Shown: piece by piece, positions 58,354 to 64,000 of the stretch | Numbering within the stretch: position 1 is the stretch's first letter | Layout of the letters: the number at the start of each line of letters is the position of its first letter | NCBI GenBank assembly: GCA_041178425.1 | Contig: JBEGVH010000031.1 | Span: 135,206-199,205, forward strand | DNA: 64,000 nucleotides | Reading direction: 5' to 3' | Origin: Pseudomonadota bacterium | Lineage (GTDB): Bacteria > Bdellovibrionota > Bdellovibrionia > Bdellovibrionales > Bdellovibrionaceae | Made by a program: the position numbers and the translations under genes | The notes under the pieces: model-generated | Database searches by the model: none | What the model was told of the DNA's origin: nothing | What the model saw: only the letters and a program-made list of their open reading frames with translations

Positions 58354-58800
58354 ATGGCTGATTTGTCTAAATATCGAGATCTTGAAAATAAATACGCAGA
58401 GTACCTTTTAAAGGCGACAAAGCACCTTGAGTATTCGCTCAACAAGTCTCACGTGCTCCCAAAAGAACTCGATAAAAATACCGAGGAATCACTCGAAGGC
58501 TGGGAAGGGCTCACGGCTCGATTTGCCAGGGTGGTAGATATTTTTCTTACTAAATACATTAAAGCCAAGGTGAAGAGCGATGATCCCATTTTTGATGGAA
58601 CCCTCAGAGACTACCTCAATATGGCGGAAAAAGCTAAATTGATAGAGAACGTCGATCACTGGCTTTCTTTAAGAGAACTTCGAAACATTCAAGCCCATGA
58701 TTATACCAACGAAGCCTTTCAGCAATTTATTACGGCTATACAGATCGAGTCTCAGTTTGTTCTTTCGGAAATGAAGAAATTAGGTTTGTATGCGCCTTAG
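58354..58800 (+). CDS. HEPN-domain toxin (HI0074-like)
   Basis: RF motif and RNIQAHDY = R-X4-H-X-Y. Confidence 0.85.
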   Translation: MADLSKYRDLENKYAEYLLKATKHLEYSLNKSHVLPKELDKNTEESLEGWEGLTARFARVVDIFLTKYIKAKVKSDDPIFDGTLRDYLNMAEKAKLIENVDHWLSLRELRNIQAHDYTNEAFQQFITAIQIESQFVLSEMKKLGLYAP

Positions 58801-59110
58801 TGAAGAAGACCTGCAGGGTTTAAAAAAAGGCCTCACTGAATTTTTAGCGACTTATAGTGACCTTCAGGTTTATCTCTTTGGAAGTCGTACCGACGACTCT
58901 AAAAAGGGTGGCGACATCGACTTGCTTTTGGTTGTGCGCGCGGAAGATCTTGAAAGTCTGCAACTTAACAAGCATCGCGCGATAACGGCGGCTAAAAAAT
59001 ACATCGATGACCAAAAGCTCGATCTCACCATTCGTTCGAGAGAGGCCCTCGCAACCGATGTTTTTTATCAATCCATTCAAAATTCTCTGATTTTGCTTTT
59101 TAAAAAATAA
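58790..59110 (+). CDS. Minimal nucleotidyltransferase (MNT) antitoxin
   Basis: YLFGSR.DD...GGDIDLL plus third Asp (KLD); overlaps the HEPN gene. Confidence 0.88.
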   Translation: MRLSEEDLQGLKKGLTEFLATYSDLQVYLFGSRTDDSKKGGDIDLLLVVRAEDLESLQLNKHRAITAAKKYIDDQKLDLTIRSREALATDVFYQSIQNSLILLFKK

Positions 59111-59504: not shown

Positions 59505-60599
59505 ATGAAAAAGACGCTCTACTTCTTTGCAGCTATGACTTTAGTTGCATCTTCTGCGATGGCATCTAAGGCTCGCTTATCTGCACTTGGAAACTCGCAA
59601 GTCGCTGTTGACTCTGACATCCAAGGGATTTTCCAAAACCCTGCTTACATGCACTATGTAGGTGATTTCGCAACATTCGAAATGGGCGAAAAGGCTGGAA
59701 CGGCAGCTGAGGCTGTTGATAACGAGCCAAATCCAGAAGGTGGCTTCATCAGCACTATGGGAGATGCTAAGTTTGGTGTTTACTTGGGTAAACAATCAAC
59801 TGACACAAACTCTTTCAGAAAAGGTTTGAATACTGTTCTGGGCGCTGAACGTTTTCTTCAACAAGAAAATCCATTTGAAGTGTTCTACGGTGCCAAAGCT
59901 GGCGATTTGAACTGGGGTGCGAGTTTTACTTACTCAAACTCGGACCTCAAAACAACTGAGCAAAAGCAAAACGCAATGGGTCTTAGAATGGGTGTTCGCA
60001 CTGACGACTGGGCAGCATTTGCAAACGTAGGTCTTGGAAGTTCAGCAAAGAATGCAGCTGTTGGCGAAGTTAAGGGAACATCTGGTATTCAATTGGGTGG
60101 TCACTATATGATGGATAACATGAGAGTCTATGGTATCTACCAAGGTTCAGGAGCTAAGTTCACAACAGCTGCTGGAACAACTGGTATGGATGCGACTGTT
60201 GCCACTACTTCAATTGGTTTCACGAATGCATGGAAAAACGAAGGAAACCTTGCTTTCTACGGAGTGTCTTATGAAATGTATAACAAAGAAGATAAGACTT
60301 CAAAGAATGAAGAAGCTAGAACTTCATTGCCTGTAACTATCGGTGCTGAAGTTGCTGCAACTTCATGGATGAAGCTTCGTGGTTCAGTGGCTCAGAATGT
60401 ACTACTTGGATCAAAAAAGCTAACAGCGGCGGGTGTTGCTGGTAAAATCGACACTGCAACTCATGATACCGTTACGGCAGCTGGTGCTGGTTTCAACTGG
60501 GGACACAATAACTTAGATGTTGTGATGACTATGGGTACATCAGCTGAAGTTGATTCAACTAATTTTGGAACAAATGCTTCTTACACTTACATGTTCTAA
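59505..60599 (+). CDS. Major outer-membrane protein/porin paralog 1
   Basis: Signal peptide, SKARLSALG, beta-strands, C-terminal YTYMF; codon usage looks highly expressed, similar to groEL. Confidence 0.8.
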   Translation: MKKTLYFFAAMTLVASSAMASKARLSALGNSQVAVDSDIQGIFQNPAYMHYVGDFATFEMGEKAGTAAEAVDNEPNPEGGFISTMGDAKFGVYLGKQSTDTNSFRKGLNTVLGAERFLQQENPFEVFYGAKAGDLNWGASFTYSNSDLKTTEQKQNAMGLRMGVRTDDWAAFANVGLGSSAKNAAVGEVKGTSGIQLGGHYMMDNMRVYGIYQGSGAKFTTAAGTTGMDATVATTSIGFTNAWKNEGNLAFYGVSYEMYNKEDKTSKNEEARTSLPVTIGAEVAATSWMKLRGSVAQNVLLGSKKLTAAGVAGKIDTATHDTVTAAGAGFNWGHNNLDVVMTMGTSAEVDSTNFGTNASYTYMF

Positions 60600-60630
60600 T
60601 TAAAGAAAACGATTTAGAAAGGATTTAAAG

Positions 60631-61686
60631 ATGAAAGCAAAAATATTATTAGCATCTGCAATTGCTCTAACTGGTGTAACTAGTTTCGCAACTACTGCTC
60701 GACTTAACGCCCTTGGAAACGCAGTTCAACTAATCGACATTCAAAATGTTTTTCAAAGACCAACTGATATGCATCTGCTTGCAGACTCTATGGTTTTCGA
60801 ATTTGGAAATTCTCAAATTGGCCAGCCCACTCAAGGTGGTTTTGTAAGAACTATGGGTGAAGGAAAGCTTGGATTTTTCCTCGGCTACGGAGATAAAACT
60901 AGATCAATCGATATCGATGGTTCTGGTGCCGGAGCTGCAGCTGAAGCATTCCTCGGCGCTGAGAATCCGTTCACAGTTGCTTATGGCATGAAAACGGCAG
61001 ACATTCCTTGGGCTGTTGCCTTGACAAGCTCGTCTTCAGATATCAAGACGGCAAGCCAGAAGCAGGCAATGACTACTTTGAGCGCTTCAGCTGTATATTC
61101 TGACGTTACTATCAACGCAAACCTTGGTCTTGGAGATAGCGCAACAGGAATTACTGGTAACGCTACTCCCAAGTACACTGGAACAAACAATTCCTTGGGT
61201 GCTTGGTATGCAATGGGTGATTTGAACGTTTATGGTAAATACGCAGCCACTGGCGATAAAGTAGAAGGTGCTACAAACAATGGTGAAGCATCTGAGACAA
61301 ATCTAAGTGTCGGTGTTATCAATTCAGCTAAAAAAGAAGGTACTGAGTTCTTTTACGGTGCGTCTTATTTGATGAAGACAAATAAAGCCACTCCAACTGG
61401 CGGAACTGAAACAAAGACAGATGGCACTTATATGCCAGTCATCATCGGTCTAGAAGCTGATGCTGCATCTTGGTTGACTCTTCGTGGTTCTATCACTCAG
61501 AACGTTCTTTTGGGCGGTGAGAAAACAACTCAAACTAACACAATCTCCCACGATACAACCGTTGCTGCTGGTGCAGGGGTGAAGTTCAACAAAGCTTCAA
61601 TCGATATGACTCTCTCTATGGGAACATCTGGTTCTGTTAAAACAGATGATATCGGTGCTAACGCTGCTTTGAACTACATGTTCTAA
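60631..61686 (+). CDS. Major outer-membrane protein/porin paralog 2
   Basis: Shares ARL.ALGN, ENPF.V.YG.K, W..LRGS..QNVLLG, HDT..AAGAG and YMF with paralog 1. Confidence 0.8.
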   Translation: MKAKILLASAIALTGVTSFATTARLNALGNAVQLIDIQNVFQRPTDMHLLADSMVFEFGNSQIGQPTQGGFVRTMGEGKLGFFLGYGDKTRSIDIDGSGAGAAAEAFLGAENPFTVAYGMKTADIPWAVALTSSSSDIKTASQKQAMTTLSASAVYSDVTINANLGLGDSATGITGNATPKYTGTNNSLGAWYAMGDLNVYGKYAATGDKVEGATNNGEASETNLSVGVINSAKKEGTEFFYGASYLMKTNKATPTGGTETKTDGTYMPVIIGLEADAASWLTLRGSITQNVLLGGEKTTQTNTISHDTTVAAGAGVKFNKASIDMTLSMGTSGSVKTDDIGANAALNYMF

Positions 61687-61713
61687 TTTAGAACTCAGAG
61701 TTCAATTTAACTC

Positions 61714-61748
61714 AAACCCTCGGGTAACCCCCGGGGGTTTTTGTTTTT
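61714..61748 (+). terminator. Rho-independent terminator after the OMP pair
   Basis: aaaccctcggg-taacc-cccgggggttt followed by ttgttttt. Confidence 0.88.
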
Positions 61749-61907
61749 GGCGTGTTCGCTGTTCGGATGGCCATTTCGTTGATCGAATCTCAAGTCCTAT
61801 CTAATAACCTCAGAAACCCTGGCACGTCTTGCTTAATAGAGCCTCGGTCACTCCAACTGGCGAGGCTCCAAAACGAAGAAGACCCCCACTACACAGTGGA
61901 GGTCCAC

Positions 61908-62030
61908 ATGAAAAAACTATCTCACAAGCAAGATAGATTTCGGAAGTTCGTTAGAACAGCTAAAGCAGTTTTAGGTCTAGTTATGCTAGTGCTGAAAATA
62001 CTGAAGCTCCTGTTGGATCTCATATACTAG
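61908..62030 (+). CDS. 40-aa cationic amphipathic peptide, candidate type I toxin
   Basis: MKKLSHKQDRFRKFVRTAKAVLGLVMLVLKILKLLLDLIY; GGAGG SD. Versus copy 2: 5 synonymous codon changes and 33/40 identical residues. Confidence 0.75.
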   Translation: MKKLSHKQDRFRKFVRTAKAVLGLVMLVLKILKLLLDLIY

Positions 62031-62054
62031 TACGTGTTTTGGTTCTGGTACGTT

Positions 62055-62139
62055 AACGGATGAGACGAGTTCCCCGCAGCTCAGTTCAAAAGTTCACAAT
62101 CCCCGACCAAGGATAGGGCGTACAACTCAGTGGGGTGTT
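62055..62139. other. 85-nt segment present only in cassette copy 1
   Basis: Copy 2 reads ggtacgtt|gccttc; copy 1 has aacgg...gggtgtt between them, with GTT repeated at the junctions. Confidence 0.85.
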
Positions 62140-62232
62140 GCCTTCACGGTTGGTTCTGCTAAGCAGGTTGGAGTGGCCACTTTAACCTCTCTAAGTGTTC
62201 CAAAATATTCTGATGCCTGTATGACAGTCCTC

Positions 62233-62580
62233 TGCTCGCCGTTCGGAAACCCGTTCCGTTGATCGGATCTCAATTCCTATTGAATCAACTTTCACAGCTT
62301 GGCACGTCTTGCTTAATAGAGCCTCGGTCGCTCCAACTGGCGAGGCTCCAAAACGAAGAAGACCCCCACTACACTGTGGAGGTCCACATGAAAACACTAT
62401 CTACCAACCAAGATAGGTTTCGGAAGTTCGTAAGAACAGCTAAAGCAGTTTTAGGTCTAGTAATACTAGTATTGAAAGCTCTGCGGCTCCTGTTGGATCT
62501 CATAAGCTAGTACGTGTTTTGGTTCTGGTACGTTGCCTTCACGGTTGGATTTGCTAAGCAAGTTGGAGTGGCCACTCAAC
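62233..62580 (+). repeat. Peptide/structured-RNA cassette, copy 2
   Basis: Direct repeat of copy 1. Confidence 0.92.
62388..62510 (+). CDS. 40-aa cationic amphipathic peptide, candidate type I toxin (paralog)
   Basis: MKTLSTNQDRFRKFVRTAKAVLGLVILVLKALRLLLDLIS; same SD and same stop position as copy 1. Confidence 0.75.
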   Translation: MKTLSTNQDRFRKFVRTAKAVLGLVILVLKALRLLLDLIS

Positions 62581-62600
62581 CCTTGCGAGGAGGCTCGCTC

Positions 62601-63803
62601 ATGTATGTATTGTTAATGATCGAAGTGATTTACAAAGTACTCACGGCACTGGTCGGTGCTCTTGTATTGATTGTGTCGGTTACTAATTGCTCCCTTAAAC
62701 TCACTCCAAAGGAGGACAGGGATAACAAGGTTGTAAAAATATCGGGGGCACCCGATACGACTTTGTCGTTGCGGGGGCTTCAGATTCACAGATACCTTGC
62801 CGAGATTAGTTATCCCGCTGGTCTCAGTCATTTGCGTCTTGAGGTTAACGATCATATTTGGGTAGAGCAGCTCCAACCACCAAGCCAATCCATCGTCGTT
62901 GGGTTTGAGGATCAAGCTCAATATAAAGTAAAACTTTTGGGTCGCACGCACCCCGAAGCAGAGACCACTTTAGTCGCCGAGTGGGAAGTCACAACGCCTA
63001 CAGACCTCTTGCTCGATCAATCGACCTTCGCTAAAACGCTAACCCTAAACTCTACCGTTGTTATTCAGGCGGAACGAGTGTTTTTGCCCCCTGGAACACC
63101 GGAGAGTCCCTCTTTAACCACTCAAGGGCAGAAGCTCCACATTGTTGCCAACGAACTCATTGCCAACGAATCCGTGATTGCCACCTTTGCAAAGGCACAA
63201 AAAGCTAGCCAAGACCAAGCTGGCCGCGATGGTGGAGAGATTTTTATCAAGGCCCTTTTCGCAAAAGGAGACCTGTCGATCGTCATGCGAGGAGAAGAAG
63301 GAGGCGATGGCAGTGCGGGGCCATCCTTTAACGAACGCGCACCATCGGGGTTGCAAGGTAAACGCGGGCGAGCGTTCTGTCGGTCGCGATTTAGTGGGGG
63401 AGACCCAGTCCTAACGTGTCGATGTTTGGAGTTTCCGGGAGATGGTGGGCCCGGTCATGATGGGCAGTCAGGGCGAGCAGGTCTCCCAGGGCGTCGGGGT
63501 GGGCACTCGGGGCAACTCAAAATGGAACTAGCGCTTGTACCTACGGCAGATTGGAAGCTCAGCTTAGTCAAAGAGCCAGGCCTTGCTGGGGCACCAGGTA
63601 CTGGTGGGCCCGGGCAATTGGGTGGGCAGGGGGGCGACGCCGGAATCATCGACGATGCAAATGCGTGTTATCCGACCCAAAGCAAGAAGGGCCAAGAGGG
63701 TTTAGTTGGGGCCGATGGGCCTTCTGGAATTCGTGAGCCGCCAGGGCTCGCACAACAAGAATGCCTTTCGATCGGTGAAGGCTTCGGACGTTGCTCAGAC
63801 TAG
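62601..63803 (+). CDS. Collagen-like (Gly-X-Y) surface lipoprotein
   Basis: ATG at 62601 follows GAGGAGG; hydrophobic signal ending SVTNC; several GXY runs (GDGGPGHDGQSGRAGLPGRRGGHSG; GLAGAPGTGGPGQLGGQGG) interleaved with Cys. Confidence 0.7.
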   Translation: MYVLLMIEVIYKVLTALVGALVLIVSVTNCSLKLTPKEDRDNKVVKISGAPDTTLSLRGLQIHRYLAEISYPAGLSHLRLEVNDHIWVEQLQPPSQSIVVGFEDQAQYKVKLLGRTHPEAETTLVAEWEVTTPTDLLLDQSTFAKTLTLNSTVVIQAERVFLPPGTPESPSLTTQGQKLHIVANELIANESVIATFAKAQKASQDQAGRDGGEIFIKALFAKGDLSIVMRGEEGGDGSAGPSFNERAPSGLQGKRGRAFCRSRFSGGDPVLTCRCLEFPGDGGPGHDGQSGRAGLPGRRGGHSGQLKMELALVPTADWKLSLVKEPGLAGAPGTGGPGQLGGQGGDAGIIDDANACYPTQSKKGQEGLVGADGPSGIREPPGLAQQECLSIGEGFGRCSD

Positions 63804-63873
63804 GCCGGGAACACAAGGTGGCCACGTGGTCGAGATTCGGACGCCATCTCTTATTAACCAAGGACTCGCTGTG

Positions 63874-64000
63874 TGTCTCGATTTGCAATTAAGTACCCTT
63901 GGCCAAACCAACCGCCCCTACTGGGAGAGGTGAGCGTAAGTTCACCGCTCTAAAGAAAAAGACCCCCACCGCTAACGATGGAGGTCAAAATGACAAACTT
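63874..64000 (+). repeat. Diverged third cassette copy (leader plus start of ORF, truncated)
   Basis: GGCCAAACCAAC, hairpin, A-rich linker, GACCCCCAC...TGGAGGTC anti-SD hairpin, ATG at 63990. Confidence 0.7.

Follow-up and report, generated by a model that had tools for sequence, protein, structure and literature searches.

Two tandem cassettes in the DNA analysed here, a stretch of 64,000 nt referred to in its entirety as the window, probably represent an undescribed type I toxin–antitoxin family of Bdellovibrio-like predators, with a build like that of AapA/IsoA and an antitoxin made by the attack-phase sigma factor. The type I reading had been put forward in a preliminary description of this DNA, and it is supported by sequence signals that recur across dozens of relatives, namely concealment of the Shine–Dalgarno (SD) sequence, pairing between the 5′ and 3′ parts of the mRNA, an antisense terminator, and an antisense promoter located within the open reading frame (ORF).

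Organisation of the tandem cassettes

Two copies at a 480-bp offset, directly 3′ of the terminator of an outer-membrane protein (OMP) gene and each containing a 40-codon ORF, had been reported in the preliminary description, and this layout was recovered in full (Table 1). The copies are 87% identical over 300 nt at the offset of 480, and a second shared block was found at an offset of 395, so that copy 2 is without 85 nt of the 3′ region. The changes between the copies had been viewed as protein-constrained. The five synonymous differences (codons 10, 15, 25, 28 and 29) and the replacements M26I, I31A and K33R are indeed present, but K3T, H6T, K7N and Y40S, unlisted at the time and situated towards the two ends of the peptide, raise the number of replacements to seven. 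With 6.5 synonymous changes over 30.3 sites and 10.5 non-synonymous changes over 89.7 sites, the copy pair alone is weak evidence of constraint, and the family-wide ratio presented below is clearer. The reported SD hairpin is real, though it carries a central C·A mismatch on the plus strand that corresponds to a G-U pair on the minus strand.

Longer ORF starts (92-aa and 83-aa GTG/TTG extensions) and 35-aa overlapping frames were considered and rejected; their starts lie upstream of where the mRNA is predicted to begin, and the relatives are 36–45 aa long. A further short inverted repeat lies at 61977–61989, within the hydrophobic codons 24–28, and the corresponding ORF window folds better than shuffled sequences in 23 of 64 cassettes. 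The contig end that interrupts the third cassette overlaps the start of another contig of the same genome (C23) by 117 nt.

Table 1. Features of the cassette region (positions in the window)
Feature	Position	Strand	Basis and remarks
Intrinsic terminator of the second PopA-family OMP gene; cassette border	61714–61740	+	Sequence scan
Candidate sense promoter, copy 1	61820–61832	+	Sigma54-like -24/-12 boxes, GG-N8-GC instead of N10; predicted start ~61844 (uncertain)
5′ arm of long-range pairing, copy 1	61846–61858	+	Also enclosed by local hairpin 61839–61868
Predicted antisense RNA 1	61872–61930	-	~60 nt, approximate ends; starts at the loop of hairpin 2, spans ATG and SD and ends with a hairpin and U tract; placed from promoter, terminator and published start offsets (PMC3627812 Table S2)
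SD hairpin, copy 1	61881–61904	both	SD GGAGG 61898–61902; on plus it hides the SD; on minus it forms the predicted terminator stem, with U tract 61870–61880
ORF 1	61908–62030	+	40-aa cationic amphipathic peptide, net charge +8, one predicted helix (residues 5–39)
Hairpin 2 (codons 4–10)	61917–61936	+	Loop 61923–61930, to which the antisense 5′ end is predicted to bind
FliA (sigma28)-type promoter inside ORF 1	61938–61964	-	-35 TTTAG 61964–61960, 16-nt spacer, -10 CCGAAA 61943–61938
Structured 3′ region, copy 1	62031–62166	+	ACGT motifs; hairpin 62116–62128 with 7-nt C-N-N-N-A-A-A-type loop; GUGGGG 62130–62135, able to capture the anti-SD
3′ arm of long-range pairing, copy 1	62167–62178	+	Predicted mRNA end ~62180
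Candidate sense promoter, copy 2	62300–62312	+	N8 spacing as in copy 1
5′ arm of long-range pairing, copy 2	62326–62338	+	Pairing test
Predicted antisense RNA 2	62352–62410	-	Placed by prediction; 5′ end unlike that of RNA 1
SD hairpin/antisense terminator, copy 2	62361–62384	both	Sequence scan and family test
ORF 2	62388–62510	+	40-aa peptide, net charge +6
FliA-type promoter inside ORF 2	62418–62444	-	Motif match
3′ arm of long-range pairing, copy 2	62561–62573	+	Copy 2 without the 85-nt core of the 3′ region
Third cassette, another subfamily, start only	63899–64000	+	5′ arm from ~63899, SD hairpin 63961–63986, ATG 63990; contig end cuts the rest

Distribution of the family

The cassette family occurs in about ten copies in this genome, where it is not annotated. 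Thirteen matches to the SD-hairpin motif, falling into three subfamilies, comprise nine ORFs of 37–40 aa, one extended and one truncated ORF, and two that are cut by contig ends, among them the copy at 63961–64000. Among the 301 genomes of the order, 90 matched a 24-member profile, with 1–14 copies per genome, and 211 gave no match; of 401 genomes from the phylum, 39 matched a 51-member profile, every one of them in the same order. Searching with a 10-member profile returned 94 clusters at 50% identity, nearly all of 36–45 aa, and in the source databases the peptide is a 'hypothetical protein' where it is named at all. The peptide had been described as belonging to no recognised family, which agrees with the library scans: 24 family members gave no match at cut-off in Pfam, NCBIfam or PHROGs, and an Rfam scan of 61600–64000 gave nothing below E = 1. 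Likewise, no match was obtained with the peptide in Foldseek against the PDB, with the window peptide alone in phage and plasmid records, or with the 10-member profile in viral contigs.

For the comparative tests, loci were collected for the best-scoring matches only (60 matches, 40 regions and the copies of this genome), and the set consequently leans to clear members. Three cassettes without a start codon were dropped to give 93, and removal of one false match left 92; five with frames of 53–85 aa and two too near a contig end were then set aside, giving 85 full-size cassettes, which were dereplicated at 85% to 64. Since the sequences are related, the counts below are not independent trials. 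A lack of conservation of reading frame and SD among homologues had been named beforehand as an outcome that would refute the type I reading, and this outcome was not obtained: a GGAG precedes the start codon in 79/85 full-size cassettes. Broken alleles also occur, with extended frames in 5/92 cassettes. In one complete genome (G126, L021:1444–1602) the only copy shown has lost about 116 nt, comprising the last codons and the 3′ core, and retains both long-range arms and the antisense promoter.

The encoded peptide

The family median is 40 aa with a net charge of +5. The window peptides reach a best 19-residue hydropathy of 2.4, and AlphaFold returned a single helix (pLDDT 83), so that both length and fold lie within what is typical of type I toxins (20–60 aa, hydrophobic helix). 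Over 27 disjoint pairs dN/dS was 0.39 overall, 0.30 for codons 11–38 and 0.70 for codons 2–10; as judged from these ratios, the core of the peptide is under purifying selection. The same ratios, together with the GGAG ahead of the start codon, provide the evidence for coding that is expected of a type I toxin gene. From its sequence, the peptide is likely to be membrane-damaging, and we consider it likely that it is toxic to the cell producing it.

Predicted closure of the sense mRNA

Folding predictions indicate that the local hairpin closes the SD in the nascent RNA, and that in the full-length RNA it is chiefly the end of the ORF that does so. The paired probability of the SD was 0.86 against 0.75 in shuffled leaders, and higher than in the shuffles for 72/84 cassettes, a modest effect. 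In addition, the 5′ leader is predicted to pair with a segment roughly 40–200 nt past the stop codon. Cognate duplexes between these segments had a mean energy of -31.3 kcal/mol, versus -21.1 kcal/mol for non-cognate combinations, and ranked in the top 5% in 63/85 cassettes; the cognate duplexes of the two window copies were beaten by only 2/83 and 0/83 non-cognates, respectively. This pairing favours the plus strand in 49/64 cassettes. The combination of an SD hidden in cis and 5′–3′ pairing, characteristic of type I toxin mRNAs, is thus found in the predicted folds, with the reservation that 22/85 cassettes failed the long-range test. None of the 3′-truncated folds computed for the window mRNAs opened the SD (unpaired probability ≤0.20).

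The 3′ region contains an ACGT motif near the stop codon in 43/64 cassettes, and a hairpin with a C-N-N-N-A-A-A-type loop in 33/64 versus 0.3 expected, a pattern drawn from the same data. Three of four pairs showed changes on both sides, and copy 2 is without the hairpin. We take its 7-nt loop, in the window and in relatives, to resemble a tRNA anticodon loop. This hairpin was the only element recovered by RNAalifold from 31 whole cassettes, and alignment-free tests were therefore used instead.

A predicted antisense gene embedded in the ORF

The preliminary description had left the antisense RNA unidentified, and a candidate can now be proposed. A minus-strand hairpin followed by a U tract is present in the leader of 79/85 cassettes, compared with 10/85 control windows. 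In most relatives this terminator is the 5′-most hairpin; it coincides with the SD hairpin here and in a few other genomes. Greater stability on the minus strand was found for the leader hairpins of 52/64 cassettes, and on the plus strand for those of 9; they contain 64 G-U pairs on minus versus 21 on plus, the C·A mismatch of the window SD hairpin being one such case.

Codon 11 has T as its third base in 64/64 cassettes, and Arg12 is encoded by CGA, CGG or CGT in 64/64, codons that account for 48% of the other Arg codons. Read on the minus strand, codons 11–19 match the published consensus of Bdellovibrio FliA (sigma28, the attack-phase sigma factor), TTAAG-N16-CCGATA (PMC3627812, available text), with codons 11–12 reading as the -10 box. 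In 1000 synonymous recodings the CGA core was found in a mean of 20.8 and a maximum of 39 sequences, versus 64/64 in the real set, and the -35 box scored 4.05 versus 3.17 after recoding (maximum 3.44). The promoter position was picked after viewing the alignment of the 64 related sequences, and a scan over the whole ORF gave a smaller excess (8.69 versus 7.84). The sites of the window copies, TTTAG-N16-CCGAAA, fall in the top 0.013% of positions, as scored with a matrix that was built from the genome's own upstream sites, seeded on the -10 box and hence partly circular. FliA is encoded in this genome, and its motif is enriched upstream of the genes (64 versus 13). FliA was found in 284/301 genomes of the order, so that its co-occurrence with the cassette is uninformative; of the five cassette-bearing genomes without a FliA match, three have FliA pieces at contig ends, the other two being drafts of lesser clarity, and flagellins are encoded in all of them.

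No minus-strand sigma70 site was found over the window cassettes. Two other antisense promoters were dropped on inspection. One, of ECF type, would have used the ACGT motifs past the stop codon, of which most relatives lack the second; the other was a sigma70 box in the 3′ region, at a variable distance from the 3′ hairpin. According to the accessible part of 10.1101/188474, FliA promoters within E. coli genes are for the most part unconserved noise; the conservation seen here argues in the opposite direction.

FliA-type transcripts mostly start 7–8 nt past the box, as estimated by eye from Table S2 of PMC3627812, which places the start of antisense RNA 1 at approximately 61930 and its end at the terminator near 61872, a length of 60 nt; the predicted family range is 54–116 nt. 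The start thus falls at the loop of hairpin 2, which had been noted previously within the ORF and proved to be both real and family-wide: its folding z-score was below -1.5 in 38/61 cassettes, versus 23/64 in one control ORF window and 5/64 in each of two others. Hairpin 2 is conserved as a shape with free sequence, its loop ending at the predicted antisense start, and pairing drops to 0.15–0.37 at positions -14 to -8 from codon 11, i.e. at this same predicted start. The antisense 5′ end would be complementary to a loop that differs between copies, and copy-specific pairing, like the weaker selection on codons 2–10, could rest on this. The invariance of Arg12 is explained by the promoter, and not by a binding site, making it a clear case of a promoter fixing the codons of a protein. 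In combination, these signals outline what a type I antitoxin requires, an antisense gene with its own promoter and terminator lying over the translation start. Antisense control from a promoter embedded in the ORF is accordingly regarded as very likely, and FliA as the sigma factor responsible for it with good, if not complete, confidence. None of the eight attack-phase sRNAs in Fig. S1 of PMC3627812, as far as that figure could be compared by eye, resembled the predicted antisense RNA.

Candidate sense promoter

A sigma54-type GG-N10-GC was found ahead of 54/92 cassettes, versus 7 expected, and the start it predicts puts the core of the long-range pairing at +3 to +14 (40 cassettes, noisy). 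In the window copies 8 bases separate GG and GC, and in the other copies of this genome 8 or 12, the canonical sigma54 spacing being absent; the sigma54-like sense promoter of the window copies is consequently a candidate only. RpoN is present in this genome, and the canonical GG-N10-GC is enriched upstream of its genes (21 versus 2.5). The sigma54-like boxes of this genome's cassettes are thus two bases short or long, in contrast to the canonical spacing at ordinary genes.

Proposed mechanism and alternative explanations

On the type I reading, an mRNA of roughly 250–340 nt would be transcribed from a promoter that is sigma54-like in most relatives. Its SD would be covered by the local hairpin at first and by the end of the ORF once the full-length fold has formed; refolding, or trimming of the 3′ end, would render the mRNA translatable. 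FliA would meanwhile produce an antisense RNA of 55–115 nt, whose unstructured 5′ end would enter the variable loop of hairpin 2, zip over the ATG and the SD and block ribosomes, the resulting duplex probably being offered to RNase III. A drop in the antisense pool, caused by lower FliA activity, by a stress- or phage-induced shut-off of transcription or by loss of the locus, would allow synthesis of the peptide, which would insert into the predator's own inner membrane and lower the membrane potential, leading to arrest or death.

In the available text of PMC3627812, fliA is given at 990 RPKM in attack phase versus 104 RPKM in growth phase (column order taken from the paper's text), and rpoN is expressed in both phases. 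An antitoxin dropping about tenfold in growth phase, with fliA not off, is awkward for a pure addiction module; either the mRNA would share the timing of the antisense RNA and be cleared, or the peptide would be made as a pulse. It is also conceivable, albeit doubtful, that the cassette is a toxin timer in the flagellar sigma cascade, in which a stored, sigma54-made mRNA is cancelled by the sigma28-made antisense RNA and the peptide is present only in the interval separating them or upon failure of attack-phase transcription. If so, it would constitute a life-cycle checkpoint that arrests progeny with unfinished differentiation, or hunters whose transcription has been seized by a phage, and not a constitutively guarded addiction module.

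The same antisense control could alternatively serve a non-toxic peptide that binds an inner-membrane protein (a motor, transporter or kinase) and is required solely when the cell is not in attack phase. Control by an attack-phase sigma factor would fit such a developmental role, the Lys/Glu stripe and the invariant Leu positions are conserved, and no toxin family matches; nevertheless, we find this unlikely, as the layered locks on the mRNA, the copy-specific antisense toeholds, the 1–14 diverged copies per genome and the many broken alleles form the pattern of toxic cassettes, a match is lacking in 211/301 genomes of the order, and the invariant Arg12 that might have marked a binding site is accounted for by the promoter. 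The strong RNA structure throughout could also suggest a structured non-coding repeat or mobile RNA element with an incidental ORF, particularly as cassettes flank repeated AAA_14+DUF4143 genes as if they were recombination units, but with a core dN/dS of 0.30 and with length, SD and amphipathic pattern conserved at about 51% nucleotide identity by column, this is hardly credible.

An action on prey had already been raised in the preliminary description, as a lytic peptide, and appears less likely than the type I reading given the patchy distribution, the frequent decay of copies and the lack of a visible export signal. In its broader form, a weapon or exit factor would be made inside the prey at low FliA activity, or in a short pulse before its rise, and act on prey membranes or in the release of progeny. 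The cationic amphipathic helix is compatible with this, as is the restriction to one order among the phylum genomes searched, and the sigma54-like sense and sigma28-like antisense promoters could time a pulse. It is nonetheless improbable: neither a signal peptide nor an export gene is visible in the cassette, and the peptide cannot be a core predation function, as 211/301 genomes of the order have no match and G126 has only the copy with the ~116-nt deletion. The regulator and the weapon or exit factor thus share the RNA control with the type I toxin–antitoxin reading, but fit the patchy, decaying and multi-copy pattern less well.

Comparison with known type I systems

The closest likeness is to AapA/IsoA of Helicobacter pylori, which, according to the accessible parts of PMC5416894 and PMC8594479, has a short ORF, an antisense RNA lying wholly within the mRNA and overlapping the ORF start, an antisense promoter in the coding sequence, 5′–3′ long-range pairing, and several chromosomal copies of which some are broken. 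The same sources point to differences: IsoA1 is constitutive, with TATAAT as its -10 box, whereas the box of the cassette is CCGA(T/A)A and FliA-type; the AapA peptide has 30 aa, compared with 40 aa; and IsoA binds by two kissing loops, in contrast to the 5′ toehold on a loop inside the ORF predicted here. Homology was judged by library scans, in which no Rfam, Pfam or NCBIfam match was found. The cassette would work like AapA/IsoA without being a member, its antitoxin promoter being of a different type.

Entry of a single-stranded antisense 5′ end into a target loop is a Sok-like property. Hok/Sok, as far as described in the available text of PMC9841398, further shares the 5′/3′ fold-back closing the full-length mRNA, an overlapping antisense RNA and the need for 3′ processing, which is predicted for the cassette. 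Sok, however, lies 5′ of the toxin ORF and acts via the mok leader, while in the cassette the SD directly precedes the peptide and the antisense RNA overlaps codons 1–8. The 24 members gave no Pfam match at cut-off, and the predicted antisense RNA overlaps the ORF.

DinQ and TisB of E. coli both have a Leu-rich helix with a charged stripe. The C-terminal 22 residues of the cassette peptide align without gaps to DinQ (36% identity, probability 19%), an alignment of 22 columns that helix composition could explain, and a language-model search listed a TisB cluster at rank 24 with a score of 0.83, which is below threshold and a lead only. TisB itself aligned with a probability of 3.8%, and there was no match to PF13939; the resemblance to DinQ and TisB is read as analogy. 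The cassette peptide has an extra basic N-terminal segment of 15 residues, and its predicted antisense RNA overlaps the target, whereas the antitoxin genes of DinQ/AgrB and TisB/IstR-1 lie upstream without overlap (PMC8594479, accessible part). Ibs/Sib, Ldr/Rdl and Fst/RNAII share tandem chromosomal copies, a small membrane peptide and a cis antisense RNA (available portions of PMC2887945 and PMC8594479), yet as laid out in PMC8594479, Sib covers the ORF entirely, Rdl is located 5′ of it and RNAII is on the 3′ side, and none of these matches the layout predicted for the cassette. Scans against Pfam and Rfam gave no match.

Previous reports and implications

No description of toxin–antitoxin systems of type I in Bdellovibrio-like bacteria was found in the literature searched (listings and the beginnings of abstracts, with subscription papers outside the scope), nor was a type I antitoxin under a flagellar sigma factor found there. 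Bdellovibrio is not mentioned in the available text of the T1TAdb paper (PMC8594479), and Fozo 2010 (PMC2887945, available part) counted 0 type I loci in HD100 and gave one HD100 candidate, Bd3114, beside rpsD. In three close relatives the cassette locus is far from rpsD, and Bd3114 is thus probably not a member of the cassette family. The family is apparently an undescribed type of cassette in Bdellovibrio-like predators.

If the reading is correct, the sequence reveals the trigger, which is open to testing by recoding two or three codons synonymously. Few physiological triggers are known for chromosomal type I toxins. Bdellovibrio is under development as a living antibiotic, and a self-toxin tied to the hunting phase would, if real, bear on predator survival, dormancy and phage defence. 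The 94 clusters of the family also constitute a collection of many natural cationic amphipathic peptides.

Public RNA data and genomic context

Four public RNA runs, located by means of a relative's locus (L021), were compared with an intact locus of a relative (L015). Three gave unstranded contigs only, and an abutting convergent gene could explain the coverage; from the fourth, no reads mapped. The contigs at this locus derive from two strains, one with the cassette intact and the other with it shortened by about 100 nt; the shortened allele resembles that of L021.

Copies of the cassette are located among housekeeping genes as well as in variable regions that contain genes for HipA, Fic, AAA_14+DUF4143 and glycosyltransferases, and their neighbours also include a nucleotidyltransferase pair. 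In the window, 58354–59110 encodes a HEPN-like nucleotidyltransferase substrate-binding protein and a small nucleotidyltransferase, below Pfam cut-off except for NTP_transf_2, which we presume to resemble toxin–antitoxin pairs of the MntA/HepT type. Two tandem PopA-family porin-like outer-membrane genes follow at 59505–61686; PopA is a marker of Bdellovibrio and its kin. Between cassettes 2 and 3, a gene of about 400 aa with a Gly-rich C-terminal half and no Pfam or NCBIfam match occupies 62601–63803. Cassettes of the third subfamily (63899–64000; L111, G000:C23:1–5000; L006, G000:C32) alternate with AAA_14+DUF4143 ATPase genes beside HipA, and the cassette leader is common to three contig ends, as if the cassettes were recombination points of a variable island.
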